Below are positions 910 through 51,054 of a stretch of 64,000 bases of DNA, piece after piece. Where the stretch lies: NCBI RefSeq assembly GCF_006345805.1, contig NC_043015.1, forward strand, positions 47,926,001-47,990,000, written 5' to 3'. The position numbers were made by a program, and so were the translations under genes. The first letter of the stretch is position 1. Every line of letters begins with the position of its first letter. Source of the stretch: Octopus sinensis. Taxonomy: Eukaryota. The notes beneath the pieces were generated by a model. The model was not told where the DNA came from, ran no database searches, and worked only from the letters and a program-made list of their open reading frames with translations.

Positions 910-910
<1 letters not shown>

Positions 911-2062
911 AAGTAAGACAACAAAATATGCAAGATTCTTTTAAAGTTTAGAGTGGTATGACTAGAATGAAATCAAGAATATTCACTAAATTTGATTTGC
1001 TATAGAATTTAATGGCAGAATTAACCAATTTCCAAATTGCTGTTTTAAATTGTTTTAATACAAAAGAATTTCTATATTTATTTAGTGTATAATACAGACT
1101 TCTTTCCCAGATTTTAAAGCCTGAACATTAATGGAGAGTATTATACTTAAGATCTAAAATGTTAATCTATGTTTACCTGGCGCCAAGTGTGTGGCCATTT
1201 TAAAGATGGCATTGCAAGAAATAAGTTATATCAATTGTTCGAGTTAACTGATATGTAATCAAGAGTTTAAATCATTATAATAATGTTACATTTTTCAGTA
1301 ATATTCTTGCAAATATCAAATCAATATTGGTAAGCATGAGTGCTTCAGATTAGATTAATATCATTCATTTCCAATAGTCTTCAAAAATACTCCTGGCTAT
1401 GGGAAAATATTACCTTGCTTGAAAGTAGGTGAGAGTTGACAATAGGTAGTGTCTCTGATTGTAGACAAGCTGCCTTAATCACACTATATTTCAATTTATT
1501 AAGATTCTGATTAAATTTTTCTAGCATGAAATTAAAAAAGAAAATGCCAATTCCTGAATATTTAAGTGTCTAAAATGTCTAAAACTTCAAATTTGCTTTT
1601 TGTTGCATTTAGAATTTGGGAACTTTTTCAATGTGTTTATACAGCAATTACAATAAATCTGACTAATCATTTTGCCTTCCATACAACATAATACATAAGA
1701 AAAGTCAGTACTTATTTTACAGGGGAGATATTTATCCAGAATTCCATTTCCCATTATGAGAGGCATTACTATATAATAATATATGAATAAATATGATAAA
1801 TTTTTTGTGCAGATGGCAATCTAGATAGACATTTAGCTAAAAATTTTGTCAATGCGCAAATACTTTTAAATTATTGATAATATGTGCATAGGTTTTTATC
1901 ACCTCCACAAAACATGCCAACCCTTTCTAAAACTTGAAATGATCATTGAAAATTGAATAATCATTTTTAAATAACTTTGATGTCATTAACTTTTTCAAAG
2001 CCAATAATAGATAGATAGACAGATAGATAGATAGATAGATTGATTAATTGATTGGTTGTATA

Positions 2063-2108
<46 letters not shown>

Positions 2109-3270
2109 TACACACATATATGTATGTATGTATGTATGTATATATAAATTCGTAACAGATATTCAATTGCTGTGGCAAATGAAGCTGAACTAGAAGGTAA
2201 AACAGATCTAATTTCAATAATAAATAAACATTTTAAAACATTAAAATAATCATTTCTTTTGATTAGGTGGAAGCCTTATTATTGGAAAAGTGAGGTTTCA
2301 AAGTAGATACATTAAAATATGGAGTGTAGCATTTTACTGACCTGGAAAGCTGCACTACCCTACCAGACATTATATGGTGTATTTATAAAAATAGCATCTT
2401 CATACAGTCACCACTTGGACCAGTTAGATAAAGAACAGCTTCTTTTCTTTTGATATCTAATCAAATTTTAATTGAAATTAGAAGTTTATATGGTTGGCCA
2501 TGTCACATGATTTTTTATTATTAAATAATAAAAAGGTTGCAAGACGCAACGAAAATTTTAGAAAATAAAAATAAGAAATAAGTGGAAATTTTACTGGTGA
2601 GTGTGTTAAATAATAAGGCACTAAAAGAGAATGACTCTCCCCAAACACAACAGTATATGCTTCAACACACAAACTCATATAAAGAATCTTGCAAACCAAA
2701 TCCAAGAACGAAATATAATAATGAATGATTTTTTGAAAAAGGTTCTGCTTTATAGAACAGTTTAAACATGATATTTATTAATCTTGTCATTGTTGGAGGC
2801 ATTTTGTCTTTACCTAATCAAGGTGATAGCTTTGTCCATTTTCTATATTACTTTGAGATAAATCCCAAAGTAAAGAAGAACAAAAAGTGAGTTTATCTCA
2901 AAACCAACAAATTAACAAATCACTACTATCCAGAAGTCTATGGATTTCTTTTGCACTGAATTAACAATATTTGCTTTAGGATAACATTTCAAATAGTCTC
3001 TGAAGCTTTGAACATCTTTTGTCATTTTGTCAAACAAAGTTATTTACTCTTGCTGGAACAATGTAGAGAACAACCATTGTCTCTCTCTACTCTACAACAT
3101 AATATTTCTCAGCCATCCTGCATTTAGTAGGTCACATCAGATGTGTTAGTATACTTTCATTTAACTCTTCTACTTTCTACTTACCTATTGGTATACAGCT
3201 TTTAGTTTTCGTTCACCTCATTCTTGTAAATAATTTTCCTTGTTTCTTCCGACTTCTATTTCCCTTCCAG

Positions 3271-3465
3271 TCTCAAATAATAGTTCGTTATTGATAATGG
3301 AAAACACTACTACGCCCTTACAAGCTATGCTCAGTTCTAGCCAAGAAAATTTTGAAAACCAGCTGAAAAACAAAAGGAAAAAACCCCTGGGATCATTATC
3401 AAAGATATTTTCTAAAACCCGTAGCAGACACTCTATTGCTGTGGCAAGTGAAGCCGAACTAGAAG
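3271..3465 (+). CDS. KAZN: Kazrin-like exon (LKNKRKKPLGSLSKIFSKTRSRHSIAV)
   Basis: ttcccttccag acceptor, gaag|gtaaa donor, phase 1-1. The basic KRKK..GSLSKIF stretch resembles kazrin's KKK..GSISRVF motif upstream of the SAM domains. Confidence 0.8.
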
Positions 3466-3494
3466 GTAAACAACATTCAAATTTCCATTTTTTT

Positions 3495-3891
3495 TACTCT
3501 TTTATTTGTTTCAGTCATTTGACTGTGGCCATGCTGGAGCACTGCCTTTAGTCAAGCAAATTGACCCCAGGACTTATTCTTTGCAAGCCTAGTACTTATT
3601 CTATCGGTTCCTTTTTCCGAACCGCTAAATTACGGGGACGTAAACACACCAGCATCGGTTGTCAAGCGATGTTGGGGTGACAAACACAGGTACACAAATA
3701 CACACACACATATATATATACATATATACGACGGGCTTCTTTCAGTTTCCGTCTACCAAATCCACTCACAAGGCTTTGGTCGGCCCTAGGCTATAGTAGA
3801 AGACACTTGCCCAAGGTGCCACGCAGCGGGACTGAACCCGGAACCATGTGGTTCGTAAGCAAGCTACTTACCACACAGCCACTCCTACGCC
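3495..3891 (-). mobile_element. tRNA-derived SINE family A (other copies about 14485-14962-, 34067-34478-, 39274-39667-, 41911-42314-, 59079-59480-, 62655-63087-)
   Basis: Head with A box TGGCTGTGTGG and B box GGTTCAGTCC, internal (TA)/(TG) microsatellite, (GTAAAAGA)n tail; many near-identical copies. Confidence 0.85.
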
Positions 3892-4643
3892 TAAATTAAT
3901 AATCATTATGAACTGATTAAAATAACCATTTTTTTTATTATTATAAAGCGAACACCTCATGGTAGGAAAAGCGAGACTTCAAACTAGCTCCAATAAAATA
4001 TACAGTGTAATATCTTACCGACCTGGCATCTGCACCTCTCTAATTATTAATTATTAATTCAATATATTTTGAATTAATTATTATTTATATAATTATTAAT
4101 TTAATGTATTTTGTCACTAACTTTTTAAAAAATATATAAATGGAAGACAATTTTTTTAATGGTTCAAAAGTAGTTATGTCTATGTAAACTAAATTACAGG
4201 GTTACATTAATTAAATTTTTTTTATATAATTATCTTTATCTTTCTAAATGCTTGTAATCATCTTATGAAGAAATAAATATAGAATTTTGATTAAGGTTTT
4301 TTTATTGTTTTTTTTTTCCTAGATAACTTTCAAATATGGTTCAACAGTTTTTGTATTAGTGTATTTTCTTTGATATCTAAGACTTCGCTTTAAGAACCCA
4401 TTCATAATAAGTAAGGTACACAAATAAGTGTGGGTGACCTTGCTTATTTTGGATAAAACTTTCAGAGTCACTTCACTAATATTCTAATATTACATACAGT
4501 AAAGGTATGCCTACCCCTGTATCCCATTCATTTCCTTCCCTAAAATATATAGCTTTTTTGCCCAGCCAGAAAGAAACCAATTCTTCTTCTTCTTCTTCTC
4601 TTCTTCTTCTTCTTCTTCTACTGTCCATTTTCCATTTTTGCAT

Positions 4644-4870
4644 GGCGAGCTGGCAGAATGATTAGCATGCCGGGCAAAATGCTTAGCGGTAATTCGTCTG
4701 CCGTTACGTTCTGAGTTCAAATTCCGCCAAGGTCGACTTTGCCTTTCATCCTTTCGGGGTCGATAAATTAAGTACCTGTTACGCACTGGGGTTGATGTAA
4801 TTGACTTAATCCGTTTGTCTGTCCTTGTTTGTCCTCTCTATGTTTAGCCCCTTGTGGGCAATAAAGAAAA
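4644..4870 (+). mobile_element. SINE family B (GGCGAGCTGGCAGAA...GAGTTCAAATTCC...AATAAAGAAA); more than 15 copies in the window
   Basis: Pol III A/B-like boxes, conserved core GCCTTTCATCCTTTCGGGGTCGATAAATTAAGTACC; the copy at 11889-12118 has a 22-bp TSD ctatctatatatgatatttacc. Confidence 0.85.
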
Positions 4871-5812
4871 AGGTACTGAGAATGCATGAGACAAAGGAAG
4901 TAGTTCCAGAGAGGGTAAGCAGTAGTAGGTGGGGTAGGGAGTGAAATACATGCAGTTCCACTCTCATAGTTACGTCAGCTGAATGAGTAGTGCTATAGTC
5001 GGATGAGTTGTGAGAAGGGTGGGTGCTAGTGGGATGGGTTGCAAGGGTGAGGAAATCACCAGGGACAGATTAGATGCAGGGCTGTAGACATCATCATCAT
5101 CATCATCGTTTAACGTCCGTTTTCCATGCTAGCATGGGTTGGATGGTTCAACTGGGGTCTGGGGAGCCCGAAGGCTGCACCAGGCCAGTCAGATCTGGCA
5201 GTGTTTCTACAGCTGGATGCCCTTCCTAATGCTAACCACTCCGAGAGTGTAGTGGGTGATTTTATGTGCCACCGACACAGGTGCCAGACGAGGCTGGCGA
5301 ATGGCCACGCTTGGATGGTGTTTTTTATGTGCCACCGACACAGGTGCCAGACGAGGCTGGCAGACGGCCATGCTTGGATGGTGTTTTTTATGTGCAACCG
5401 ACACAGGTGCCAGACGAGGCTGATGAATGGCCATCTATTTATAGACATCTATTTATATTCCTAATTATTTAGCATATGAATTAATGATCGATGCCAGTAC
5501 CACCTGACTGGCCATTGTGCCAGTAGCACGTAAAAAGCACTCCATACACTCTCAGAGTGGTTGGCATCAGGAAGGGCATCCAGCTGTAGAAACTTTGCCA
5601 GATCAGGTTGGAGCCTGGTGCAGCATTCTGGTTTGCCAGCCCTCAGTCTGGAAATTTGGAAAACGCTGTTCTAGAGTAATGTTGCTCAACAGGGAGCATA
5701 GTTCGGAGATCAGGAAGTCTCTCCAGGTCAAGCCACTATTTCTCCCCGTTGTGTGGTCACAGCCCCAGTACTTTTCATTAAAGTTTTGCAGTAGCATAAA
5801 TAAACAATATCT

Positions 5813-6359
5813 CCGAATTGAACCAGCCAGGATCCCTGGTCTGGTGGTACGTAAAAAGCACTATCCAACTCGTGGCCGATGCCAGTGCCGCCTCCACTGG
5901 CTTCCGTGCTGGTGGCACGTAAAATACACCAATCCGACCGTATGACAGGCACCCATGCCAACCCCCTTTGCTTGCGAAGACATGTTGGGGCAAGCGAAAT
6001 CGAAATCGAATTGAACCAGCCAGGATCCCTGGTCTGGTGGTACGTAAAAAGCACTATCCGACTCGTGGCCGATGCCAGCGCCGCCTCGACTGGCTTCCGT
6101 GCTGGTGGCACATAAAATACACCAATCCGACCATGGCCGTTGCCAGCTTCGCCTGGCACCTGTGCAGGTGGTACGTAAAAAGCACCCACTACACTCACGG
6201 AGTGGTTGGCATTAGGAAGGGCATCCAGCTGTAGAAACATTGCCAGATAAGACTGGAGCCTGGTGCAGCCTTCTGGCTTCCCAGATCCCCGGTCAAACCG
6301 TCCAACCCATGCTAGCATGGAGAATGGACGTTAAACGATGATGATGATGATGATGATGA
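5813..6359 (+). mobile_element. SINE-like family C with internal tandem units and (GAT)n tail (others about 5090-5430-, 7217-7470-, 14066-14248-, 31896-32356+, 34740-35165-, 49700-50111+, 63424-63860-)
   Basis: Shared 3' region GGTTGGCGTTAGGAAGGGCATCCAGC...GGACGTTAAACGATGATGAT. Confidence 0.8.
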
Positions 6360-7469
6360 TAGGATAAATTTTAAACATATCACAAAAATGTTGAACAAAT
6401 TTTATTTCTAATTAAAATTATATTTTCCACTTCTTCAATTATGCCAAAATTTAAAAAAAAATTAAAATTAAATATTTGTAATATGTTACAAATGTAATAA
6501 AAAAAAATAAAGAATATATATTTACAGTTAAACTAAGTAAACCAAGACTTTAATTAGTATATGAGAGAGGTTACGAATATAAGCAACTGATAAAATTTGA
6601 AATCTCACTGCTATCTTGATACCCAGGTGTAATTACCACTAATTATATGTTTCCTCAACAAACTATATTTAAATATGATTTGCTTAAATATATGTATGGA
6701 TTTGTCATTCAGAGCTTTTTAACTATGAAATTTAATTATAAAAAAATTTTTATAAAAAAATCATTATAGTTTTGGATTTTCTGTAATAATTATTCCAAAT
6801 GAGAACTGTTGTTATTACAGATGAAAAATTGAATATGCTGTTTAATGTAAGCTTTCAAAAAATAATTTTGTGTTTTGTTGAATTTAACTGTATTTAGTCG
6901 TAAAAATTATGCAATAGCTTTCATTTAGAACCTTTTATAAAATTGTTCCAAAAATCCCATTAGTACATCAGTAGATAAAAAAATTAGAGTTGATTAATGA
7001 AACCAGTCTAAATTCACAATTATTTTATAATTTACTTGAAACACATAAGGAGTGCATTTCGATTAGAAATATGATAAGGAAAGGGTTATTAATTTTTAGA
7101 AAAACTGTAAAGTTGGCAGGAAATGAAGTATTAACTCTTTGGCACATACCTATAACATCAATGTTATTTTCAGTGGTTTTCTTCCTGTATTGGGGTGTGT
7201 AAGTTTCTGATATATATCATCATCATCATCGTTGTTTAATGTCCACTTTCCATGCTGGCATGGGTTGGACGGTTTCACTGAGGGCTGGCAAGCCAGAAGG
7301 CTGCACCAGGCTCCAATCTGATCTGGCAAGGTTTCTACAACTGGATGCCCTTCCTGATGCCACCCACTCTGAGAGTGTAGGGAGTACTTTTTACGTGCTA
7401 TTGGCATGGGAGCCAGTCAGGCAGCACTGGCAATGACCATGCTTGAATGGTGCTTTTTACGTGCCATTC

Positions 7470-8135
7470 TGAATGTTGGGTAATGATTGAAAGAATATAA
7501 TCATGAATGCAGGAACCAAAATGGATTTCCTTCGAAGGATCTCTAGAGCAACATTTTTCAAACTGTGGGTCCCAACTTTTCAGTGGGTCCCAAAATAAAT
7601 AAAATGGGTCGCAACAAAAAGAAAAAAAGGAAAAAAAGCACTTGGGTGCAAAGTGCAGAATATAAACTAGTGTTTTTTAAACTGTGGGTCCCGACCCTTA
7701 AGTGGGTTGTGAGATAAATAAGATGGGCCATGACAAAAAATTTGGAAAACGCTGCTCTAGAGTAATGTTGCTCAACAGGGTGCATAGCTCGGAGATCAGG
7801 AAGTCTCTCCAGGTCAAGCCACTATCTCTCCCCGTTGTGTGGTCACAGCCCCAGTACTTTGGACATGTGATTACATTGTAATCACTGCTAGATGGATTGT
7901 TCAAGCCAAACCAACAAACAGTAAACGTTCAAGAAGACCATGAATGAGATGGCTAGGTTAATATCCATTGTCTCAATTTGTCATGCTTGAGAATCTAGCG
8001 AAAAAGTCTAATAATAATTGCTTCTGATGTGAGCCTATGGAGGAGGTTCCTTGAGAATACTACCCCCATGACTCTCTCAAGAAAACTGAGCAGAGCGGAC
8101 GGACAGATGGATCGACAGACAGACGGACGAATGAA
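7470..8135 (+). mobile_element. RTE-clade (Rex3/Expander-like) LINE 3' fragment, interrupted by a hAT MITE
   Basis: Degenerate ECWVM.ERI...MDFLRRISRVMLLNRVHSSEIRKSLQVKPL...QYFGHV reading; (GACG/GATG)n tail. Confidence 0.7.
7549..7754. mobile_element. hAT-type MITE
   Basis: 8-bp TSD CTCTAGAG (7541-7548 and 7755-7762); imperfect TIR CAACATTTTTCAAA / TTTGGAAAACGCTG. Confidence 0.8.
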
Positions 8136-8286
8136 CAGTTGGCTTTTTGGCTGGTTTAGTTCCTGGTATTTCATCTGAATTTTTGAAATAAAGTCTCAAA
8201 TATTCAAATGAAAGACCAAATAATTTTGCAAGCAGTAATCCTGTTTCTATTTTTATTACATTTTATTTTAATTTATTTTATTTTAG

Positions 8287-8480
8287 ATTCCAGTGTATTG
8301 AATTCTCACATTAGTTTACTGAATACGGAAAACCTACAAGAAAAGTTAAACATAGCAGAAAAACTGAAAGAGACTCACATATCCCAATGGAAAGCTAATC
8401 AAGTTTTAACGTGGCTAGAAGTGGTTCTGAATATGCCAATGTATGGCAAAATGTGCTCTCATAATATCAAAAGTGGAAAG
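8287..8480 (+). CDS. KAZN: Kazrin-like exon, SAM1 N-half (WKANQVLTWLEVVLNMPMYGKMCSHNIKSGK)
   Basis: ttttag acceptor, aag|gtgagt donor, phase 1-0; matches the kazrin SAM1 signature WLEVVM.MPMY...C..NVKSGK. Confidence 0.92.
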
Positions 8481-9297
8481 GTGAGTATTTTATTTCAGGT
8501 TGTAGCTGTTTATTTTTATTTTAATATACTTGTGTGCTTAAGACATTTGCTTTGGAAACAGGCACCTTGGAGTCCCATTGGTCCCATTGTGTGGATGCTG
8601 TTGGCTGTTGTCTTATCCTGTAGCTAATGTGTTGACCAATACTTTGTGATATTGGTCATCAAACACTGAAGGATCCTATCATATCTCTACATACACAGAT
8701 GTATGTGTGTGTGTGTATGCATGATACCTTATTCCAGCCCTTGTGCCTAGAGTAGAAGAGACTATAGACACGGGCATGGCTTTGTGGCTAAGAAGCCTGC
8801 TTTGCAACCTCATGGTTTTACTTTCAGTCACACTATTTGGTACCTTGGGCAAGTGTCTTCTACTGTAGTCCAGGCTGACTAATGCTATGTATGTGAATTT
8901 GATGAGTGGAAATTATTCAGAAACCCTGTGTGTGTGTGTGTGTGTGTGTGTGTCTCCACTCCCATATATTTGATATTTGTTTGCATTCCCATAACTTAAC
9001 AGTTTGGCAAAAGGGACCAATAAAATATGTACTGTACTTAAAAAGGGAAAAAAATAGGTACTGGGAACAATTCTTTTCAACTAAACCCTTTAAGGTGGTG
9101 CCATAGCCTGCCCACAGGCCAATGAATGTAACAAATAAAAGAATAAAAAGATAAAAAGATAGAAAATATCTATTTTGAAGAATTAACTTGTCCTTATTTT
9201 AATAAGTGTTCAAGAGAAAAATTATCTGCATTTTATTTCCAGAATCTTTAATATTCTCCTCTAAAATCTCCCAACAAAATTCCTCTAATTATAACAG

Positions 9298-9410
9298 GTC
9301 TTACTTGGTCTTAACGACTCAGAACTTGCCTCAGCTCTTTCTATCACCAGTGCTATGCACAGAAGGAAACTACGGATGGCTATTGAAGCACAACGGACCC
9401 CATCTGAAGT
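9298..9410 (+). CDS. KAZN: Kazrin-like exon, SAM1 C-half (VLLGLNDSELASALSITSAMHRRKLRMAIE)
   Basis: aacag acceptor, gt|gtaag donor, phase 0-2; HRRKLR.AIE is the liprin/kazrin SAM1 motif. The ORF track shows a different frame here. Confidence 0.92.
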
Positions 9411-10425
9411 GTAAGATTTATATTTATTTCAAACGCATTTTGTCTGTATATATTACATTTCCATTTAATGTATTTTAAAAATAAGGAATTATTTAAATCA
9501 TTTTATAAACAGCCTTTTTTTTTTTTTGTATTTCTGTTTCCATTACCTTAAAACTATATAGAAGAATGTGAAACAAATGTTGAAATAACTCAAGAGTCTT
9601 TGACTCTTTAGTATTTAAAATGGCCATACCTGGCCAAAATATCATACCTATTTTATGTTCAAACCAACCAGATTTGGCCTCTTACACCTACCCTACAATG
9701 TCATTCTAAAAATATACAACCCTGGTAAGTAGCTTGCTTACGAACCACATGGTTCCAGGTTCAGTACCACTGTGTGACACCTTGGGCAAGTATCTTCTGA
9801 AATAGCCTCGGGCTGACCAAAGCCTTGTGAGTGGATTTGGTAGACGGAAACTAAAAGAAGCCCATAGTATATATTAAATTCAGCTTACATTGAAAGTCAA
9901 CAAAATTTGCCTTAGAAGCATTGAGATGTATTGAAGGATACAGATATGTATTTATCTATGTGTGTATGTCTTTGTGTTGGTGTGTTTACATCCTCATAAC
10001 TTAGCGGGTCAGCAAAAGAGACTAATAGAATAAATACCAGGCTTTAAAAGAAAATAAATACTGGAATTGATTCATTCAACTAAAATTCCTGACGGCAGTG
10101 CTCCAGCATGGCCGCAATCTAATGACTGAAACAAATAAAAGATAAAGATTAAAAAAATCATTTATGTGAATTCTATTTATGAAAGTGTTCTTCCATACAC
10201 AGCTACAGCCAAACACTAGAATCCTTCTTTCCAAATTTTATGTAAGCCACTATCATCCACCCTCATTCTGCTCTGGTAAAACTTCTTCATGCAATGAATG
10301 CACAACCTCGTATTTCTTGAGAGGAAAAGAAATACTGAAATTATAAAACCCCATAAAAATTTTCCAAAAGAAGATAAAAAAAAATCTGCTTTGAAAATTT
10401 GTATAGATTTTTTATAGAAACTACA

Positions 10426-10709
10426 GAGATGTACTTGCATAGCAAGTGATTTGATCTGAGATTGTGTGCTGGAACGAAAACAATTGCAGCGTGGAAGGTG
10501 TTTGTAAGCCATTTAAGAAACACACAAAAACCATTCGATTCACTTCAACATTTAAGTTTAATTTGTCAAAATATTTTCGTCGCTATAAGACCGCGACCTG
10601 TTCACTGACAAAAATTCGTGCTGCATGAATGAAATGTTGAAGTGAATCGAATGGCTTTTGTGTGTTTCTTAAATGGCTTACAAACACCTACCATGCTGCA
10701 ATTGTTTTA
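10426..10709. mobile_element. Asymmetric fold-back element (Penelope pLTR-like), copy 1
   Basis: About 78-bp inverted arms (10477-10553 / 10633-10709); same unit as 56243-56583. Confidence 0.65.
10562..10612 (-). ncRNA. Hammerhead-like motif with a G3:C8 covariant core
   Basis: UUUGUCA-GUGAACA-G-GUCGC(9 nt)GCGAC-GAAA-AUAU-UU-UGACAAA. Confidence 0.55.
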
Positions 10710-10827
10710 TAGAAACTTTTATTATAAAATATTTTCTTGTTTTGCTTCATTTAAAAACATGTAAAACTGTCTTATTAATTCTGCTTTAATTAATGGTAAT
10801 TATTTCCCAAAATCTTTATTTTCCCAG

Positions 10828-11062
10828 GAAATATCTCAAAGCTGTTGAAATCGACCATAATTGGGTCTCTGAAAAATGGATTCCTGACCTCGGTTTGTCT
10901 CAGTATAAAGCAACATTTGAATTACAACTAGTTGATGGCCGCATGTTAAATAATTTGACCAAAAAAGACTTAGAGAAGTATTTTGCAATTCATCGCAAAT
11001 TTCATCATGCCAGTATACTTCATGGAATCGAACTTCTGAGGTCTTTAGATTTTGACAAAGAA
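10828..11062 (+). CDS. KAZN: Kazrin-like exon, SAM2 (IDHNWVSEKWIPDLGLSQY...VDGRMLNNLTKKDLEK...FHHASILHGIELL)
   Basis: ttcccag acceptor, gaa|gtaagt donor, phase 2-0; strong kazrin SAM2 match. Confidence 0.95.
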
Positions 11063-11658
11063 GTAAGTATCTCTGTTCTTTCTCACCATCATCTTCATCA
11101 TCATCATCTTCATTATCATCATCATTGTCATTATCATCATCATTTGATACCAGTATTCTATGCTGGCATTAGTTCGATGGTTTGACAGAATCTGAAGGGC
11201 CTGAGAATCGCATTGTGTACCAGCGTCTACTTTGGCAGTGTTTCTATGACTAGATACCTTTCCTAATGCCAAGTTGACAGTTGTTGATGGCTGGAAGATT
11301 TTGGGGAGTGATTGAAGCAGCAGATGAATTTAGTGCAATAAGGAATAGAAACTTTGAGCTAGAATAACTGGAAGTCTTTCTTACTAATATCCAGATAAGA
11401 GAAACTGAGTACTAGTAATTGGAAAGTGCTATGGTTAGTTCACATTACTCCATAAAAAGCAAAGGGCCGGTCTCCTGGTTTCACTGACACATACATTCCT
11501 TCCTGGATGGGATGACGGTCCATCGTGGAATTACTCCTTTTTGCCAGCTGAGTAGACAGGAGCAATGTGAAATGAAGTATTTTGCTCAAAAACACAAATA
11601 TTGCTCAATCAGGGAAATGAAACCACAATCTTACTATCATGAATCCAACACTCTAACC

Positions 11659-12267
11659 CAGCGTTTCTCAACCGAGGTTCTCCGGAACCCTAAGATTCTG
11701 CAAAAGGTTTCTAGGGGTTCTGCAAGAAAGAGTGAGACATGCTAATTTCATGATCGTAATATTACTATACATGCACACCATATTAATTATCTAACCTATT
11801 ATGTTATCAAAAAAATATTACAACCATTAGGGATATATTTAGGGACATCTGTAATTTATGGACACCCTATCTATATATGATATTTACCTATTTCTTTATT
11901 ACCCACAAGGGGCTAAACATAGAAGGGACAAACAAGGACAGACATAGGTATTAAGTCGATTACATTGACTCCAGTGCGTAACTGGTACTTAATTGATCGA
12001 CCCCGAAAGGATGAAAGGCAAAGTCGACCTCGGCAGAATTTGAACTCACAACATAATGGCAGCCAAAATACCGCTAAGCATTTCGCCCGATGTGCTAACG
12101 CTTCTGCCAGCTCGCCGCCTATCTATATATGATATTTACCATGTGAACAATGAAGAAAAAAATATGAGAAAGATATAGTATATAATTTTTTCGTGCAGGG
12201 GTTCCTTGAGACATGTAATTTATTTTAAGGGTAAAATATGCAAGAGTAAAAAGGTTGAAGAACACTG
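11659..12267. mobile_element. hAT-type MITE nested in a SINE D remnant and containing a SINE B
   Basis: TIR CAGCGTTTCTCAACC / GGTTGAAGAACACTG; degenerate 8-bp TSD ctctaacc / ttcaaacc. Confidence 0.7.
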
Positions 12268-12591
12268 TTCAAACCACTAAGCCATGTGCCTCCAGAGAGT
12301 GGGTACTACATAATACTATTTCAAAGAAATTAAAATATAAATTGTAGCTGAGTGACTAGATGGGTTCAAGGTTACAAGACAAGAGTTTGTTGGTTTTTTT
12401 TTCCCTTTAGAAATTAATAGAATGTGTGCTCAATGTGTTTTAGGGATTGGTGATATTATCAGAGTTTGACCAAATGTTTATGGAGACTGGAAGAGAAGAT
12501 AGAAATTGTCCTGTGGACTATTTCTTGTTCTGAAAAACTATCTCAAATTATTGTAAAATTTAAATTATTTTCTCTGTTGATATTTTTGTAG

Positions 12592-12693
12592 GCTTTACAA
12601 GAAAGGCAGATCAAGTGTGAAGAAGAAAACACAGATCCCCTTGTGTGGACAAATGATCGAGTTATCAAATGGATAAAGTCAATTGACTTGAGT
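12592..12693 (+). CDS. KAZN: Kazrin-like exon, SAM2-SAM3 linker (ALQERQIKCEEENTDPLVWTNDRVIKWIKSIDLS)
   Basis: ttgtag acceptor, agt|gtaagt donor, phase 0-0; DP.VWTN.RV..W motif. Confidence 0.93.
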
Positions 12694-12999
12694 GTAAGTT
12701 GTTTGTTTTTCAGTGTTCACTTGTGGACTGTCTCTTTTCGTGTTATCTTTCTGTTCCATCAGAAGCGCATTCTTGAATGTCAACCTGTCTTTTTAAATAT
12801 TTATCTCTTTATTGCCCACAAGGGGTTAAACATAGATGGGACAAACAAGGACAGACAAAGGGATAAAGTCGATTACATTGACTCCAGTGTGTAACTGGTA
12901 CTTATTTAATTGACCTTGGTGGAATTTGAACTCAGAACGTAACGGCAGATGAAATACCGCTAAGCATCTCACCCGGCATGCTAATGATTCTTCCAACTC

Positions 13000-13520
13000 A
13001 ATGAAGTGTCTTGAATGTCAATGTGTTCCTTAAATGTCAATGGGGTTTTTTGAATGTCAAAATGTTTTCTTGAATGTCAGTGTATTTTTAGGATGTCAAA
13101 ATGTCTTCATGGATGTCAAAGTGTCTTCATGACTATTGAAATGTCTTCTTGAATATTTATTTCTTTATTGCCCACAAGGGGCTAAACATAGAGAGGACAA
13201 ACAAGGACAGACAAAGGGATTAAGTCAATTACATTGACCCCAGTGCGTAACTGGTACTTAATTTATTGACCCCAAAAGGATGAAAGACAAAGTCAACCTT
13301 GGTGGAATTTGAACTCAAAATGTAGCGGCAGACGAAATACTGCTAAGCATTTCGCCCATGTCTTCTTGAATGTCAAAGTGTCTTCTTGAATTCAAAATGT
13401 TTTCTTTGATGTCAATGTCTTTTTTGGATGTCAAAATGTCTTCTTGAATGTCAAAATGCATTCTTGAGTGTAAAAGTGTATTCTTAAATATTGAAGTGTA
13501 TTCTTGAATGCCAAAATGTA
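13000..13520. repeat. Degenerate 21-22 bp minisatellite (AATGTCTTCTTGAATGTCAA)n, interrupted by SINE B
   Basis: Repeated tcttgaatgtcaa units. Confidence 0.8.
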
Positions 13521-13889
13521 TTTCACAGAGATCCCTCTGGGGTAAAATGTATTATATCTAACCCACAGAATATGTCTGGTACTATATTTTATGACCTGCA
13601 ATATTTAATGGCCAGGTATTCTTAGTGTTTCAGGAAAAAAAAAACTTGCAGTATTTGATTATGTCCCTTTAATTTCTATGTTCAAAACTCATTGAAATCA
13701 ACTTTACTTTTTATCCTTTGGGTGGGATCCACTGAATAAATTATTATCAATATTAATTGTAGTAGTAGTAGCAGTAGCAGCAGCAGTAGTGTGGTGGTGT
13801 TGGTGGTGGTTTTAAATTTTGGTACAAAATGACTGTATCACTTGTTTGTAATAATAAAATTTGAAAAACACGTTTCTCTCTCAAAACAG

Positions 13890-14056
13890 GAATATGCTGA
13901 CAAACTGAAGGAAACTGGAGTTCATGGAGCACTAATTGTTATGGAACCATCATTTACTGCAGAGACGCTTGCAACAGCATTAGGAATCCCTCCATCTAAA
14001 TCTTATGTCCGGCGTCATCTTGTTTCAGAACTTGAAGCCCTTATAAAGCCTGCAAG
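13890..14056 (+). CDS. KAZN: Kazrin-like exon, SAM3 (EYADKLKETGVHGALIVMEPSFTAETLATALGIPPSKSYVRRHL)
   Basis: aacag acceptor, ag|gttagt donor, phase 0-2; GVHGA..LGIP..K...RRHL liprin/kazrin SAM3 motif. Confidence 0.95.
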
Positions 14057-14727
14057 GTTAGTATATCATCATCATCGTTTAACGTCCATTCTCCATGCTA
14101 GCATGGGTTGGACGGTTCGAACGGGGATCTGGGAAGCCAGAAGGCTGCACCAGGCTCCAGTCTGATCTGGCAGTGTTTCTAAAGCTGGATGCCCTTCCTA
14201 ACGCCAACCACTCCGTGAGTGTAGTGGGTGCTTTTTATGTGCCACCTGTTTACAGTTCCTGATGTTTAGGTTTCTCATGGTAAAAAAACCCATGAAAACC
14301 ACTCCTTTCTCCATACTACGTATTATCTTTATGAATACCATGTATTGCTATTCTTCCTAATTTTTTGCTCTCCATGTGGCCTGTGGTAAACCAGTGGAAA
14401 AATTTAAGGATATGTTAAGAATACTCATATCATTGAGGAAACCGCTTGGTATTTAAGACCCAGGTGAATCCTGACCGAGGAGATTCTTTTACTCTTTTAC
14501 GTGTTTCAGTCATTTGACTGTGGCCATGCTGGACCACCACCTTTAGTTGGGCAAATCGACCCCAGGACTCATTCTTTGTAAGCCTAGTACTTGTTCTATT
14601 GGTCTCTTTTGCCGAACTGCTAAGTTATGGGGACGTAAACACACCAGCATCGGTTATCAAGCAATGGTGGGGGAGACAAACACAGACACACAAACATATA
14701 TACACACATACATGTGTATATATATAT

Positions 14728-14776
<49 letters not shown>

Positions 14777-15049
14777 GTGTGTGTGTGTATGTGACACATA
14801 CACACACACAATGGGTTTCTTTCAGTTTCCATCTACCAAATCCACTCACACGGCTTTGTTTGGCCCAGAACTGTACTAGGAGACATTTGCCCTAGTTGCC
14901 ATGCAGTGGGACTGAACCTGAAACTATGAGGTTGAGAAGTACACCTCTTACCACACAGCCACACTACTTATTATAGATCACATTGTACAGATCTTAATGA
15001 CTTGGTTATTAACTTTAATCAATTAGTTAATCTATATTTTCCATTTCAG

Positions 15050-15179
15050 AGAGGAGCTAGAAATTACAGGTCTAAAAAGAAAATCCGGTGGAGGATCACT
15101 TGGTCGATCTTTTACTCGATCTTTCCGCTCTACCACAAGTATTGATGATCTCACTCCCAAACCTCGAATGAGCATTAGG
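15050..15179 (+). CDS. KAZN: Kazrin-like exon, post-SAM tail (EELEITGLKRKSGGGSLGRSFTRSFRS...RMSIR)
   Basis: tttcag acceptor, agg|gtaaga donor, phase 2-0 consistent with neighbours; open frame. Confidence 0.8.
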
Positions 15180-16228
15180 GTAAGATATTATTCTTCATTA
15201 TCAGTCATTGTAAAGCTATATTTTTATCAAGGTCATAGTAGAGGCAGTAAAAAGTATTTGTTTCTAGTCATGGTAGACTAGAAATAAGTAACATTATTTG
15301 TGCGATGGTGTTGCTTGTATACAGCCATCACATGATGCCAAGACAAGGTATATGCAAGCACACACTCCTCATCGTTGTCATCATCGTTTAACGTCCACTT
15401 TCCATGCTGGCATGGGTTGGACATTTTGACTGAGGGCTGGAAAGCTGGGAGGCTGTACCAGGCTCCAATCTGATTTGGCAAGGTTTCTACAGCTTGATGG
15501 CCTTCCTAATGCCAACCACTCCAACGGTGTAATGGGTCCTTTCTACATGCCACTGGTACGAGGGCCAGTCAGGAGGTACTGGCAATGACCATGCTCCAAT
15601 GGTGCCTTTTATGTACCACTGGCACAGGAGCCAATCAGGTGACACTGGCAAGGACCATGCTCAAATGGTGCTTTTTACATGCCACCAGCACAGGAGCTAG
15701 TCAGGCGGTACTGGCATCAGCCACAACAATGATTTCACTTGACTCAAGAGGTCTTTTCATGCACAGTTTATTGCCCAATGATTGAAATATATATATATAT
15801 AAACGTTTATATATTTGTTTTGCAAGATTCTTGATGTGAAATCGTGTGTTGCAACAGATATTGTTGTATTTAGGAATGGTCATGTTGCCAGTTTAGTCAA
15901 TCTGGCCAAAATAAGATTAAGATTAATGTAAAAAATAAATAGAGCTGAAGCAAATTAACACCAAATATATAGTGCGTGTGTTTTTATTGGCTAAACTGTC
16001 AAAATGACTGGTTACTTTTCCCTTAAGGTAAGATCAACAAAAAAATGTACTCCATCCAGTGAGTGATAAATATTGTTTAATGTACATTGTTTATAGTTTG
16101 AGCTACTAATAGTTTCATACATTGGAGATATTTTCTAGGCAGGTTTTAATAACATGCCTAGTGTCTCAAAGTTATCTTTGGGCTCTGAGCACATGTTTTA
16201 AAAAGTTCTTTTTTCCTCTTTTCTCTAG

Positions 16229-16390
16229 GGATCCCTTGGGAAAGCATTCAGTCGGAAAAGCAAACACTTTGAATCTAAGGATAACAATAGTATTGACACA
16301 CCAGTAAGCATTAAGCAAAAAATCATGGATCCAGCAGCAACACAACAAAACCAATCAAGTCCTCTTGATTTCTCATCTACAGCCGTGTGA
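16229..16390 (+). CDS. KAZN: Kazrin-like terminal coding exon (GSLGKAFSRK...DFSSTAV*)
   Basis: Long pyrimidine tract plus ctag acceptor; phase 0; stop TGA at 16388-16390; GSLG motif echoes the previous exon. Confidence 0.78.
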   Translation, partial: GSLGKAFSRKSKHFESKDNNSIDTPVSIKQKIMDPAATQQNQSSPLDFSSTAV

Positions 16391-26408: not shown

Positions 26409-26629
26409 AGTGAGTGAGTGGACAAACAAAAGGAATCGGCATTCAACACATTTAGTAGGAGTTACATAAATTATTGCTTAAAACATTAGCCCCATGTAAC
26501 TTTTGTAAGTTTTGTAGGTCTGTCACAGGAACCTATATACATACATATATATATATATTTATATAAATATATACACACACATAGGGACCTATATATATAG
26601 ATAGATACATACACACACACACACACACA

Positions 26630-26660
<31 letters not shown>

Positions 26661-26947
26661 TGGGAACCTATATATATATATATATAGGTTCCCATGTGTA
26701 TATATACATACTAATAATATTAGGGAATATAACTCCAAACTTACAGGGAAAAATTCAATTTAGTATTAAATCAAATTTCACAATATAAATATATAATATA
26801 TATAAATTAGAGAAAAACTTCTATTATGTAATTCAAACAAAGATAGGCATAAACCAAATCATAAAGAAAAAATAAAATATATTATAAAACATATAACTAG
26901 ATCACAAAAAGTACAAAAAATGAATAAACAATATGTAATAAGTAAAA

Positions 26948-27051
26948 TGACTACGTACGTTTCGTGGCTATAACTTCAATTTGAATTACAATTAAATTTA
27001 AATTTAATTGAAAAACAATTCAGTTTAAAAGTATAGTCACTCCTCAGGTCA
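26948..27051 (-). ncRNA. Type I hammerhead ribozyme, intact core, long stem II
   Basis: Minus strand reads UGAC-CUGAGGA-GUGACUAUA...UAUAGCCAC-GAAAC-GUAC-GUA-GUCA. Confidence 0.8.
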
Positions 27052-27564
27052 ACAATAATAGATAAATAATCAAATAGAATTAAACAATATTTCTTAAAGA
27101 AATAAAATCATGATTCTTCTTATAGAAGAAACTCCGTTAACTAAATTTGAAACTTAAAAAAGCTTGAACAATGCAAAGTAAATGCAAGGCAAATCACAAG
27201 AAAACAAATATATGAATTAATGTAGACTTACTTTGTATTCAATATTTCAGGATTATGACCCCACTTTCAAGAAATTAATGTTGCCCTCCTTCTCAGTGTG
27301 TGTGTGTGTTTCTTTGTGTCTGTGTTTATCCTTCACCACTGCTTGACAACTGGTGTTGGTGTGTTTACATCCCAGTAACTTAGTGTTTCAGCAAATGAGA
27401 CCAACAGATTAAGTACTAGGCTTTCAAAAATAAGTACTGGGGTTGATTCATCTGACCAGAAAAAAAAATCAAGTCAGTGCCCCAGTATGACCTCGGTCTA
27501 ATGACTGAAACAAGTAAAAGCTACACTTATTTATCATAAACATATACCTAAGCCCTCATGTGTA

Positions 27565-29527
27565 TTGGGTCATCCCATAAATAATGTGGTTTTTTCAATT
27601 GCGTGAACTAAAAGTCAGAGAGGGATGGGATAAACAACCTGCATCAACTTCCTATGAAAGCAGGTAGTAATTTTACCTTGTACTTATTCTTAGTGCAAGG
27701 TTTAAAGAGTGCAGTTATTTTAATAGTTATTTTTTCAGAGCTATAATGGAAGTGACAAAAGAGCATATTCAGCATATTTTGCTTTATGAGTTCAATAAAG
27801 GCAACAATGCAAAGAAAAATGAGAGGAATATTAATGTAGTATAAAGGGATTGGATAATAAGTGTAAGCCAGAGTCAACGGTGGTTCCAGAAATTCCAAGC
27901 TGAAAACTACAGCCTAGAAGATGAGCCTCATTCTGGAAGATCTGTAGAGCTCAATGGGGATGTCCTGCAAACCCTGGTGGAACAAAATCTCATCGTAACT
28001 GTTGAGGAACTAGCAGAGAAGCTTGGATTTGGTCAGTCAACCATTCATCGACACCTGCATGCCATCAGAAAAGTCAGCAAATTAGGTCCAAGGATTCCTC
28101 ACAAACTTTCTGAGTCTAATTGTGCACAGAGATTGAATGTGTGCTCTTCTTTGCTGACACATCCCATGAATGAACCTATAGCGTAGAGTTGGGTGAAATT
28201 CCTCTCTCTCATTTATTATATATATATATATATGCACATTCAAATGTAACAGGGAACAGCTAGCTTTTGGCTGCTATTTGGATCCCATTGTGTCCACTAT
28301 TCTGACTGGTTGGTATTGGCACAATTTGTTTCATACTTGACTGCGCCAACTTACCACATATAACCAGTTGGAGTCTCTAAATAGGTTCACGTGGGACAAC
28401 CTGTTGACTACCCTGTTTTGGCCTACAGCTCTTTATAAAAACTCAGCTTTTCCTCATTTTGAGGTCTTTTGGTTCCAGACCTTTTAAGGTCTAGCCACTG
28501 ACCACAAGACACAGCCAGTTCCAGCGACAACACCAGACAACACCACTACAGCAGTCACGTTTACATACTAGCTGTTATACATTCTTTCATTCATGATGGA
28601 TGATAGACAACTCAATGAAGGCATTGTTATTGTTTTACGTGTTTATTTTGCTTAACCTGTTTACGAACTGTCAATATACAGTGGAGTTATACACATTGTG
28701 CGCATCCACCCTAGACGCAGTTCACACTGTTTACTAACAAATAGTGCCAATAGTGGGGATACATTCATACATACGTATACACATAGATATGAATGTGTAA
28801 CACTAACTTTGCATATTGGCACGTGAGAGAGCAAGAGACAAATTGCACTAATACCAACCAATCACTGTAGTGGACACAACAGGGCCCAAAGGTGTGGCCG
28901 AAGGCTAGCTGTTATCTACCACGTCTGTATTTATGTATATATAACAGAGAGAGAGGAATTTCCCTCAAGCGTGCGCTACAAAGGTCTTCACCCATATAAC
29001 GTGTTGTTATCTGTTTGGTGGAATATGAAAGATTTAGTCCCCTTTGAACTTTTAAACCCAAACCAAATTATAACAAAGAAGATCTATTGTAAGTAGCTTG
29101 AGTGGCTTAAGTCAGTGCTAGAAGAACAACGAGCATTTTTGGTTTCAAGACAATAATACTCAGCCACATGCTGTGAAGATGACATTCCGAAGGCTGGAGC
29201 AGTTTGAATGAGAAATGATGCACCATCTGCCATAATAGCAGGTCATTGCCCCATCTGATTATCATTTATTCCGCAGTCTTCAAAATCATTTGAACGGAAA
29301 AAATATAAATTCTGAAGATGAGGTCAGAACAGTACTGAAGGATGAGTGAATTTGGGGGCAGGGGGCCTTGCAAGTCAACCAGATAGATGGAGGAGCATTG
29401 TAGAAATTGAAGGAGAGTATATTTTAGATTAAAAAAGAACTTTAGATTAAAAAAAGAACTTTGTTTATCTTAATTTTGAAAAATAAAAGAAGTATTAAAA
29501 ATTCACATTATTTATGGAATGGCTCAA
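27565..29527 (+). mobile_element. Degraded mariner transposon with a nested 804-bp insert
   Basis: TIRs TTGGGTCATCCCATAAATAATG / CATTATTTATGGAATGGCTCAA flanked by TA; MEVTKEHIQHILLYEFNKG..., GLHP..VLLSVWW and APSDYHLFRSLQNHL remnants. Confidence 0.85.
28177..28980. mobile_element. Unclassified element with about 120-bp imperfect terminal inverted repeats
   Basis: TATAGCG..GAAATTCCTCTCTCTC...GTGTCCACTA versus TAGTGGACAC...GAGAGAGAGGAATTTC..CGCTACA. Confidence 0.65.
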
Positions 29528-46834: not shown

Positions 46835-48109
46835 TTAGGTTGTTAAGAAAGTTCTTGCAGTTTTTAACCTTTAAATTCAGATGCACATATCTCGACTCAA
46901 ACAAAACTTTATTAAGCGAAATAAACTCCATCAGGATCAACACACATTTGCCAATGGGAAACAAGTTTATTTATGCCAGTAGCATAAAAATCCTGCATTC
47001 TGGTGGTGATGAAGTCGATGAAGGCATGTTTGGCATCATCTTGGTTTTTGAAGCATTTCTCACACAGGAAGTTGTTGAGATGCTTGAAAAAGTGGTAGAC
47101 AAGAGGTCTGGTGAGTATGGTGGATGAGGCAGAGTTTCGTAGCCCAATTCGTTCAACTTCTGCAGGGTCAGTTGTGTGACGTGTGGCTGAGCATTGTTGT
47201 GGAGAATTGATCCTTTTCCATTGACCAATGCTGGCTGTTGTTGGAGTTTCTTATGCATTTCATCCATTTGCTGACAGTACTTCTCTGCTGTAATGGTTTC
47301 ACCTGGATCCAAAAAGCTGTGATGGATGAGACCGGCTTCAGACCACCAAACAGTCACCATGACCTTCTTTTGGTGCAACTTTGGCTTCGGGAAGTGCCAT
47401 GGAGCTTTGTTGGTGTCCAACCACTGAGCTGAGCATTGCTGGTTGCTGTAAAGAATCCACTTTTCATCGCAAGTCACAATCTGGTTGAGAAATGGGTCAT
47501 TCTTGTTGCGTAAAAGAAGGGAAGACGACACTTCTAAACGGCGTTTTTTTTTGGTTGTCATTCAATTCGTGCAGCACCCATTTCTCAAGTATTTTTGTTT
47601 TTCCAATCTCTTTCAATTGGTTGGAAATTGTCGTATACGTTACGTCTTATTCAGAAGCAAGCTCTCGAACAGTTGTGCATGGATTGGCTTCGACTAAGGC
47701 TTTTAGTTGGTTGTTGTCAACATCCGATGGCCGAGCACTATGCTTATCATCTTCAAGCCTCTCTTCACCGCTACAAAATTTCTTGAACCACCATTGTGCT
47801 GTACGTTCATTAGTGGTTCCTGGGCCAAATGCATCGATGATATTGCGAGCTGTTTCAGCAGCTTTTCAGCCTAGCTTGAACTGGAATAAGAAAATTGTGC
47901 GAATTTGCTTTTTGTCCATGTCGTATTCAATGTTCCGGAAAAAATAGCCTAATTATTCAAAAAGAAAAAAAGAGTAACACATTAGACAGAGTGAAAAACA
48001 AGCTTTAAAATTATATATAAAGTCAAAGTAATTTAATGAAAATTAATTTGAAAATACATAATTTAAAACCAAAATTTAAAATTCCACAAGAACCTTCTTG
48101 ACAACCTAA
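46835..48109 (-). mobile_element. Near full-length mariner (cecropia/Hsmar1-like) with pseudogenised transposase
   Basis: TA-flanked TIRs TTAGGTTGT..AGAA.GTTCTTG; MDKKQIRTIFLFQFKLG..., IVTCDEKW, KKVMVTVWW and HPPYSPDL motifs with stops and a deletion. Confidence 0.92.
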
Positions 48110-48926
48110 TACATTTATCCATGATGGCACATGGCCTAATGGCTAGGTTGTACTCCTGACCATAAATAAGTGGTTTCAATTCCCAGACCTTACAATGCAT
48201 TGTGTTCTTGAGCAAGGCACTTCATTTCACATTGGTCCAGTCCACTCAGCTGTAAATGAGTAACCCTCAGTTGACTGGTGGCCCATTCAGGGGGAATGTT
48301 GTGATCTTAGTCATTTATATGCCATGCAATCAAGACGGCGAGCTGGCAGAAACGTTAGCATGCCGGGCAAGATGCGTAGCTGTATTTCATCTGTCGCTAC
48401 GTTCTGAGTTCAAATTCCGCCGAGGTCGACTTTGCCTTTCATCCTTTCAGGGTCGATATAATTGACTTAATCCCTTTGTCTGTCCTTGTTTGTCCCCTCT
48501 GTGTTTAGCCCCTTGTGGGTAGTAAAGAAATAGGTATTTCATCTGTCATTACGTTCTGAGTTCAAATTCCGCCAAAGTTGACTTTGCCTTTCATCCTTTC
48601 GGGGTCAATAAATTAAGTACCAGTTATGCACTGGTGTCGATCTAATCGACTTAATCCCTTTGTCTGTCCTTGTTTGTCCCCTCTGTGTTTAGCCCCTTGT
48701 GGGTAGTAAAGAAATATATATGCCATGCAATCCAGGTAACTGGCCCTATGAGTACTACAACATGAGACAGCAATGTCTAGGGAACTTACTTTTGGCTCTT
48801 TTAAAAAAAATTTTTTTTCACATTTATCCATCCATCTCTCTCTCTGTCTGTTTGTCCACCTGTCTGATCTATTTCTGTCAATCAATTTTTTTTTTCTTTT
48901 CTTTTTTATGTTTTTGGTTTTTGAAG

Positions 48927-49215
48927 AACTTGTTTTGATGGAAGAACAGCACATCAGGCTGCAGAAAAACGTGCAAAGTTTGTTGGAGCATAAACGGGAT
49001 ATCGAATATATACTAGGTAGATTGAAGGAGGAAGTAGACGACATTCATGAGAAATATGATCAGCAACGTAGTCGTCATAAGATGCTGGTCACCGAAATAA
49101 ACCATCTTCTTGCCCAGCAGCAATTCACAATGAAACAAATAATGAAACGCCGATCGTCAGACGGTGCACCACCAGAAGTTCAAGAAGATCCCGTCGCTCT
49201 TAAGAATGCAGTCAA
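48927..49215 (+). CDS. TSNAXIP1: TSNAXIP1-like coiled-coil exon (ELVLMEEQH...EVQEDPVALKNAVK)
   Basis: Poly-T tract plus gaag acceptor, aa|gtgcgt donor, phase 1-2; EDPV.L..A.K motif. Confidence 0.85.
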
Positions 49216-50495
49216 GTGCGTTTTTGCTTATCACTTCCATCACTACCATTTACCACTGCCCCCACCCCTACCACCACCACATAGCTGCATCATAGCTGTT
49301 ACTGTTCATTAGTCATCTATCGTTATCATTATCATACATATCAAAAAGGGTGGGGTGCTGGCAGAATCGTTAGCATGTTGGGCAAAATGCTTAGTGGTAT
49401 TTCGTCTGCCGCTATGTTCTGAGTTCAAATTCCGCCGAAGTCAACTTTGCCTTTCATCCTTTCGGGGTTGATAAATTAAGTACCAGTTACGCACTGGTGT
49501 CAATCTAATCGACTTAATCCCTTTGTCTGTCCTTGTTTGTCCCCTCTATGTTTAGCCCCTTGTGGGCAATAAAGAAATAGGTATTTCATCTGCCGCTATG
49601 TTCTGAATTCAAATTCCACCAAGGTCGACTCTGGGGTCGATATAATCAACTTAACCCCCACCCCTAAGCTGCCCTTAGATTTGAAATCATTATCATACGT
49701 ATGACCGTACAACAGGCACCCATGCCAACACCCTTGCTTGCGAAGACATGTTGGGGCAAGCGAAATCGAAATCGAATTGAACCAGCCAGGATCCCTGGTC
49801 TGGTGGTACGTAAAAAGCACCATCCGACTCGTGGCCGATGCCAGCACCGCCTCGTCTGGCTTCCGTGCCGGTGGCACATAAAATACACCAATCCGACCGT
49901 GGCCGTTGCCAGCCTCGCCTGGCACCTGTGCAGGTGGCAAGTAAAAAGCACCCACTACACTCACGGAGTGGTTGGCGTTAGGAAGGGCATCCAGCTGTAG
50001 AAACACTGCCAGATAAGACTGGAGCCTGGTGCAGCCTTCTGGCTTCCCAGATCCCCGGTCGAACCGTCCAACCCATGCTAGCATGGAGAACGGACGTTAA
50101 ACGATGATGATTAATCTCTATTAATCGTGTAGGTGCAGGAGTGGCTGTGTGGTAAGTAGCTTGATTGCCAACAACATGGTTCTGGGTTCAGTCCCACTGC
50201 GTGGCACCTTGGGCAAGTGTCTTCTACTATAGCCTCGGGCCAAGGTTCAATGAAATAAGTACCAGTTGAGCACCGGGGTCAATGTAATCAGGTAGCCCCC
50301 ACCCCACCTCACAGCCACACCCCTGCAAGAAAAAATTTTAGGCCTTGTGCCTGTGAGCACAAAGAATATTAATTAGCGCTGTTTATTTTTAAGGTTTGTT
50401 AATAAAGATGTTATCGTTTGCTGAAATTAAATGCTTAATAACATCGAATAGAATTTGAAGAGAGAGAGAACTCTTTCCACTCATTTTTATTGCAG

Positions 50496-50955: not shown

Positions 50956-51054
50956 TTCCTTTATTTTCGACATATGTTTCGAAGGCTGCATATTCCTAAT
51001 TTCGAAGGAATAAGGGGTGCATTATGCCGCCTTCTCATCAGGAAAAACAAGGAA
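50956..51054 (-). ncRNA. Type I hammerhead ribozyme, intact core
   Basis: Minus strand reads UUCCUUGUUUUUC-CUGAUGA-GAAGGC...GCCUUC-GAAAC-AUAU-GUC-GAAAAUAAAGGAA; stems I and II and a palindromic stem III are all present. Confidence 0.85.

Follow-up and report, generated by a model that had tools for sequence, protein, structure and literature searches.

Can a hammerhead ribozyme carry a second stem of 77 nt, what kind of element brings such a motif into an octopus genome, and what does the long arm mean for it? These questions are raised by minus-strand positions 27051-26948 of a 64,000-nucleotide stretch of Octopus sinensis contig NC_043015.1 (the window, by which we mean this whole stretch), where an initial annotation had proposed a hammerhead with an unusually long, AU-rich stem II. 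The reading that we favour, and consider probable, is that of a Hydra-clade Penelope-like element (PLE) hammerhead in a lone 5'-truncated copy, whose 77-nt stem II is a tolerated outgrowth that need only fold back.

A type I hammerhead with a 77-nt second arm

Read on the minus strand, the type I motif runs from the stem I strand UGAC through CUGAGGA, the 77-nt insert, GAAA, C-GUAC-G and U-A to GUCA (Table 1), and each of these elements lies where the initial annotation had put it. CUGANGA, GAAA and NUH surround a three-way junction with stem I open. The predicted cut between 26952 and 26951 had been placed correctly by the hammerhead consensus, and the stem III octamer is self-complementary, as claimed, with a 4-nt loop III. 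Three details had to be revised. The four-pair stem I is present in the window copy, but its outermost pair, U27051-A26948, is private to that copy (A in 1 of 88 family copies), so that stem I of the family measures 3 bp. The paired base of stem II and its palindromic cap are likewise both present, but the base holds an A-C mismatch at its fourth position, and the palindrome of the cap is perfect only where position 27009 is A (20/88), the G found in 63/88 giving a G-U pair.

Table 1. Features of the window discussed in the text.
Feature	Position	Strand	Basis or remark
Kazrin-like gene, nine coding exons	601-16387	+	residues 308-795 of P0004
(TA)n/(AC)n microsatellite tract at the insertion's 3' end	26534..26707	.	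sequence
5'-truncated Hydra-clade Penelope-like copy (3' UTR end, pLTR with hammerhead, tail)	26708..27160	-	homology to other copies
Optional tail, ~75 nt	26708..26783	-	shared with sister families
Type I hammerhead motif, whole	26948..27051	-	descriptor scan, fold, shuffles
Stem I 3' strand (GUCA)	26948..26951	-	sequence match
Predicted cleavage site after GUA	26952/26951, H17 = A26952	-	position inferred from hammerhead consensus
Self-complementary octamer ACGUACGU	26953..26960	-	stem III: 2 bp as monomer, 8-bp duplex as dimer (predicted)
Catalytic box GAAA	26960..26963	-	sequence match
Stem II arm, 77 nt, predicted long interrupted hairpin	26964..27040	-	folding
22-nt palindrome capping the stem II arm	26989..27010	-	perfect in window copy; one G-U pair in most copies
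Catalytic box CUGAGGA	27041..27047	-	N7 is the sole difference between subfamilies (58 G, 30 A; 88 copies)
Stem I 5' strand (UGAC)	27048..27051	-	3 bp in family, 4 bp in window copy

When the whole window was scanned with a descriptor open to long inserts, exactly two motifs came up, this one and a motif near 51 kb with a 54-nt insert, and a pattern written for the present layout matched once in the window and never in 100 shuffles. On the minus strand the 104-nt motif folds at -19.7 kcal/mol (z -2.15) and the insert alone, which is 79% A+U, at -17.5 kcal/mol (z -4.28), with the third stem II pair formed at a probability of 0.97; stem II amounts to about 30 bp with internal loops. For the octamer, folding predicts an 8-bp duplex (-9.8 kcal/mol) and no hairpin within the monomer. 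No hammerhead family appeared among the 121 Rfam matches in the window (E up to 5) or among the 2 matches of a local Rfam scan (E up to 10), as expected for a 77-nt arm, and the descriptor of PMC4209133 (helix II of 3-7 bp plus a loop of 3-10 nt, about 26 nt at most; stem III of 2 nt) would pass over it as well; the earlier warning that length-limited searches could miss the motif was well founded. The shuffles and the reversed-pattern controls given below rule out a chance origin. Positions 26948-27051 are confirmed as a hammerhead-type RNA motif, which is predicted to cut itself in pairs.

The motif lies in a lone, truncated copy

The AT-rich insert to which the motif had been assigned, at about 26700-27230, does contain an element, but one that spans about 27160-26708 (453 bp, 20% G+C); 27161-27250 appears to be part of another repeat. 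A 201-base query against the 2.72-Gb genome yielded 1,535 first-look candidates, and the best among the 40 scored were 86-93% identical, while the 64-kb window holds no second copy of the family. At 29 other loci, homology to the window stopped near 26783 in 18, entered the tail in 8 and stopped earlier in 3; the window copy extends through the tail to about 26708, where it gives way to (TA)n/(AC)n. Since many other copies run on upstream of 27160, where the window copy does not, the latter is 5'-truncated. Eight of the 29 loci carried an inverted piece on the 5' side, and the 30 loci together included one tandem pair (L008/L009). The neighbouring microsatellites had been noted before; the window flank and many of the aligned copies (not formally counted) end in (TA)n, the usual target of Hydra elements (PMC8557442). 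The motif is intergenic, as proposed, about 10.5 kb past the end of the kazrin-like coding exons and on the opposite strand. With no partner copy nearby, the lone window copy is likely inert.

The tail is conserved (82-90%) between sister families with different UTRs and arms; it recurs at loci L163, L165, L168, L170, L174, L178, L190, L192 and L202. Its length is about twice the 30-40 bp described for PLE tails, and in contig sets it is covered far more deeply than the hammerhead region. We regard it as a candidate priming or endonuclease recognition site.

The parent carries the motifs of a Hydra-clade Penelope-like element

Beyond about 2 kb of AT-rich non-coding DNA, the upstream walk through other copies reached the end of an ORF with CLLC and CRH and, farther upstream, a CTCRDKxNC linker and then an RT with MGAPDS and YRDD. 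The endonuclease lay upstream of the hammerhead in the same orientation in 13 of 17 stretches of 9.9 kb, chosen for long homology, together with the RT in 7, which bears out the earlier proposal of a Penelope pLTR remnant: the same 3' end stands downstream of GIY-YIG. Locus L098 carries hammerhead and tail sequence on both sides of its ORF, that is, direct pLTRs (pLTR-ORF-pLTR).

Hydra elements are marked by an RT, DKT, a CxCX5C linker plus, at the C terminus, a GIY-YIG with CxxC and CxH (PMC8557442). In translated copies of the window family the linker reads CTCRDKxNC, the C-terminal CxxC reads CLLC or CYLC and the CxH reads CRH; DKT (the Hydra change from DKG) stood some 590-640 bases before the RT4 motif at all three loci scanned, and KWK occupies the place of the N-terminal RWK in L098 (read by eye from the DNA), where 6 of 6 related proteins have RWR or RWK. 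By these motifs, RT and GIY-YIG form a single ORF in other copies of the family; this ORF is absent from the window copy, and all parent ORFs translated are broken. Pfam gave no RT or GIY-YIG match on the parent's fragments, and for this reason the assignment of both domains rests on motifs and tblastn. A word-based protein search found one relative only, and the closest protein relatives include two named as Argonauta. The assembled motifs support a putative Hydra-clade, C-terminal-endonuclease PLE as the parent.

Other placements were considered and rejected. Naiad elements have an N-terminal endonuclease and no canonical hammerhead, whereas the endonuclease here is C-terminal and the hammerhead complete; Neptune and Nematis do not fit a linker of CxCX5C rather than CX2-5CxxC, nor CxxC/CxH in place of a CCHH finger; and a non-LTR retrozyme would be a short non-coding tandem unit, whereas the copies are variably 5'-truncated ends of a coding element.

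At four loci (L061, L098, L100, L106) the 3' UTR of about 1.8-3 kb holds an internal duplication of about 250 bp, its halves about 400 bp apart, and poly-Asn is encoded in the ORF linker by (AAT)n runs. At L100:5460-7220 (+), a copy of the window family stands head to head with a more distant Hydra-type element, about 30-38% identical.

Self-cleavage is predicted for paired transcripts

We infer that cleavage would occur in transcripts with two pLTRs, because the octamer forms a predicted 8-bp duplex and no monomer hairpin, and because published PLE hammerheads depend on dimers or on protein. Metazoan PLE hammerheads with a palindromic stem III are inactive as monomers and weakly active as dimers (PMC4209133, PMC6765202), and that of the anole Poseidon PLE cleaved only with the element's protein (PMC11167929). 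In the transcript of a full or tandem element, pairing of the two pLTR hammerheads through ACGUACGU would create a stable stem III, a step in which the element's own protein probably assists, and the cut after GUA would shorten the precursor RNA. At a (TA)n site, reverse transcription would begin from the tail end (26708); for the window copy it would have stopped after about 450 nt. In the anole PLE, insertion in vitro did not require cleavage, and RNA-seq ends were not seen at the cut site (PMC11167929), so that the cut's biological role is putative.

The core is kept while the arm varies

For the family as a whole, 88 copies were aligned, a few of them near-duplicates; up to 30 came from a pattern that fixes the core (35 matches, 0 in controls). 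The core is intact in 71 of the 88 and accompanied by a perfect octamer in 48. Arm length varies, as the initial annotation had suggested checking: 77 nt in 47 copies, 75-78 nt in 73, 81 nt in 6 and 54 nt in 2. The arm is nonetheless folded (z below -1.65) in 83 of the 88, with every subfamily represented.

Subfamilies differ in core and junction at N7, at pair 10.1/11.1 and at a compensatory stem I pair. The latter (27050/26949) is G-C in 56 copies, A-U in 23 and mismatched in 9, and the stem II base 10.1/11.1 is G-C in 32, G-U in 40, U-U in 12 and otherwise in 4, U-U being a tolerated variant at this place (PMC3088659). The covarying positions of the 88 copies represent a few subfamily events, not dozens. 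Within the arm, two-sided changes occur at 4 of 19 predicted pairs (8 sequences from the window family and a sister family). Substitution rates rise from the core (2.0%) through the proximal arm (3.0%) and the distal arm (3.8%) to the flanks (4.8-5.7%), but the pattern-picked copies bias these values, and we set them aside as evidence.

This pattern bears on the suggestion that long-armed hammerheads are vestiges, which no longer cleave, ride along in the 3' UTR and owe their hairpin to AT-rich slippage. Stem I is very short, the loop lies about 30 bp from the core so that no recognisable loop-loop contact would be possible, metazoan PLE hammerheads are poor cleavers in vitro (PMC4209133), and the one PLE tested inserted without needing cleavage (PMC11167929). 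A vestige, however, would not be expected to show a compensatory stem I change with N7 alone free to vary, a proximal arm in which sister families exchange G-C for A-U, or octamers that change across unrelated families and yet are fully palindromic in 18 of 31 motifs (see below). We consider a vestige quite unlikely.

It is very improbable, in our estimate, that a small intron or an editing switch lies concealed in the arm, such that RNA processing restores a normal short stem II. In the window copy the arm does start with GU, with an AG close to its 3' end; it is a long imperfect duplex with an A-C mismatch; and introns are known to persist in PLEs, the D. virilis hammerhead being bordered by one (PMC4209133). 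The GU, however, is found in 71 of 88 copies only and is missing from a whole subfamily; splicing there would take out nearly all of stem II; and the arm shows no sense-strand A>G excess (29/2258 A>G against 45/2858 T>C). Neither an intron in the arm nor an ADAR footprint is thus supported by GU conservation or A>G counts. Of four contig sets compared with the window, the two that we guess to derive from RNA listed no contig skipping part of stem II, and the predicted cut site is spanned by some contigs; contigs show neither RNA ends, strand nor expression, and these therefore say nothing on cleavage.

Long arms are common in the octopus genome

Arm lengths were surveyed genome-wide with a pattern that fixed the core, a G and a C as the third stem II positions, a 4-nt loop III and G after the cut, pairing not being required; it misses families such as the 51-kb one. 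The census gave 4,877 motifs with arms of 8-31 nt (control 7), 1,815 with 32-62 nt (17), 1,944 with 63-92 nt (8 with the reversed pattern) and 278 with 93-122 nt (14), or 8,914 motifs against 46 in controls, of which 4,037 (45%) have arms of 32-122 nt. The description of the long stem II as atypical therefore holds against published minimal hammerheads, but not in this genome, where 45% of matches reach at least 32 nt. With this one strict pattern, 4,037 of 8,914 motifs exceed the arm limit of the PMC4209133 descriptor, and counts of cephalopod ribozymes, like statements that a PLE lacks a hammerhead, thus depend on the length limit.

The matches listed include many unrelated families with different palindromic octamers. 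A mixed-family sample of 31, made of the window motif and the first 30 loci of the 63-92 nt bin, had arm z values below -1.65 in 20, the other 11 not being significantly structured; the third stem II pair closed at a probability above 0.5 in 25, the octamer was perfect in 18, and stem I reached at least 3 bp in 18 (it is 2 bp in one sister family). Among the matches listed, 12-13 nt arms dominate the 8-31 nt class and forms of 36-42 nt recur many times in the 32-62 nt bin. One sister family has arms of both 68-69 and 42-44 nt with near-identical 3' flanks (L165, 68 nt; L203, 44 nt). In the short forms of the sister family, the apical helix that lies between two copies of a short repeated word is missing, a pattern suggestive of slippage; such words within the arm would be where it gains and loses length.

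Among the matches listed, the commonest short-armed families combine 12-13 nt arms with U-A or U-U at the stem II base and an imperfect octamer, ACGAUUGU / ACAAUUGU; inverted pairs with a spacing of about 100 bp are frequent.

Of the readings of the arm, tolerance has the best support, because families with 12-nt and with 120-nt arms have both spread; on this reading stem II could grow because only its closure matters. Against the favoured reading as a whole stand a stem I of only 3 bp, a cleavage that is itself a prediction, the small number of covariation events, the 11 of 31 long arms that lack significant structure, the dispensable cut of the anole PLE and the broken ORFs. Long folded arms in many unrelated families of this genome, absent from the non-octopus relatives examined, are also not explained by pure tolerance alone. 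The arm might instead be a selected module, either a second dimerisation surface formed through the palindromic cap or a binding site for the RT-endonuclease that aids folding. Folding predicts a gain of 11.6 kcal/mol when two copies swap arms, with a cap duplex of -19.2 kcal/mol; many families unrelated in sequence have long folded arms, whether AU-rich or GC-rich; and the protein dependence of the anole hammerhead (PMC11167929) would fit a binding site. Arm-swap dimerisation, however, is possible for any hairpin, several long-armed families have no palindromic cap (L173, L175, L190), 12-13 nt arms dominate the largest class among the matches listed, and one family has spread with both 42-44 and 68-69 nt arms. 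Selection for such a module is in our judgement unlikely, and the same doubt attaches to the broader idea that octopus PLEs repeatedly turned stem II into a functional module of 30-120 nt for RNA pairing or protein binding; if that were true, the long-armed class would make up nearly half of this genome's thousands of pattern-matched motifs while being invisible to standard searches. Arms of 12 to about 120 nt on the same core provide a natural series for relating stem II length to dimer cleavage.

Relation to known hammerheads

Hammerheads in PLEs, including the Hydra clade and octopus, are already known, and the element itself is ordinary; the predicted stem II of the window motif is about three times longer than in described relatives. 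Published Hydra hammerheads have arms of at most about 26 nt (PMC8557442 File S2, counted by eye), the core search of that study having allowed 7-17 nt. For a non-octopus set, a single protein query retrieved 12 metagenome loci encoding Hydra-type proteins, 8 of which held 9 motifs with arms of 10-25 nt, four of them directly downstream of the ORF; the remaining four loci showed no hammerhead motif, three of these with little downstream DNA. A literature search, with most subscription papers outside it, found no description of such long arms in octopus.

The Hydra clade of PMC8557442, which includes Hydra-1_Obim from an octopus, shares with the window family the order RT then GIY-YIG, DKT, CxCX5C, CxxC, CxH, (TA)n targets, a type I hammerhead close to the 3' end whose stem III is short and near-palindromic, a stem II base of U-U or G-C, inverted 5' pieces and an optional tail. 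The window family differs from it in the arm (77 nt against at most about 26), the 3' UTR of about 2-3 kb in an element of over 5 kb (against under 3 kb), the tail (about 75 nt against 30-40) and KWK in place of RWK, and the hammerhead sequence listed for Hydra-1_Obim is not that of the window family. The minimal metazoan PLE hammerheads of PMC4209133 are likewise type I, located in pLTRs, mostly found as solo truncated copies and equipped with a palindromic stem III that implies dimer cleavage; their helix II, though called larger than usual, has 7-8 bp, whereas here helix II reaches about 30 bp, interrupted by internal loops, and loop III has 4 nt.

A precedent for long arms exists in spike-moss PLE-X1, where two motifs marked non-canonical have about 50 nt between the catalytic boxes (by eye; PMC8557442 File S2), but these are two isolated cases, shorter than 77-122 nt, in an endonuclease-free, 28S rDNA-targeted plant element. 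The type I hammerheads of amphibian non-LTR retrozymes, axolotl HHR_Amex1 for example, resemble the window motif in their weak helix III with a palindromic tetraloop and in cleaving as dimers, as predicted here; they differ in having helices of canonical size and loop-loop contacts and in lying in short tandem non-coding repeats, whereas the window's hammerhead belongs to a dispersed protein-coding PLE (PMC7229834). The 'HHR_half_core' entries of Naiad were also considered as missed long-armed type I motifs, an idea that found no support: in the passages inspected by eye from the 3' ends of the two cephalopod Naiad consensus sequences so marked, GAAAC precedes CUGAUGA instead of following it.

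The 51-kb family and other features of the window

The second hammerhead of the window (50964-51046, minus strand) has a 54-nt arm and the octamer ACAUAUGU. Its family yielded 2,199 candidates, 94-100% identical among those scored, many at 98-99% and often in inverted pairs, and it is younger than the window family. The initial annotation had called the two motifs unrelated in sequence, which holds at the nucleotide level, where we found no similarity between the two families, but not for their parents: that of the 51-kb family encodes a C-terminal endonuclease of the same type (L153, L158, L159), 29-32% identical to that of the window family, which makes the two families cousins.

The kazrin-like gene encodes SAM domains and is 100% identical over 77 residues to an Octopus vulgaris kazrin-like protein. 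A 186-residue open frame at 48752-49312 (+), with a coiled-coil-like stretch and no confident Pfam match, is probably an exon of another gene. Two further segments, 46971-47561 (-) and 27750-28170 (+), we take to be mariner-like transposase fragments.
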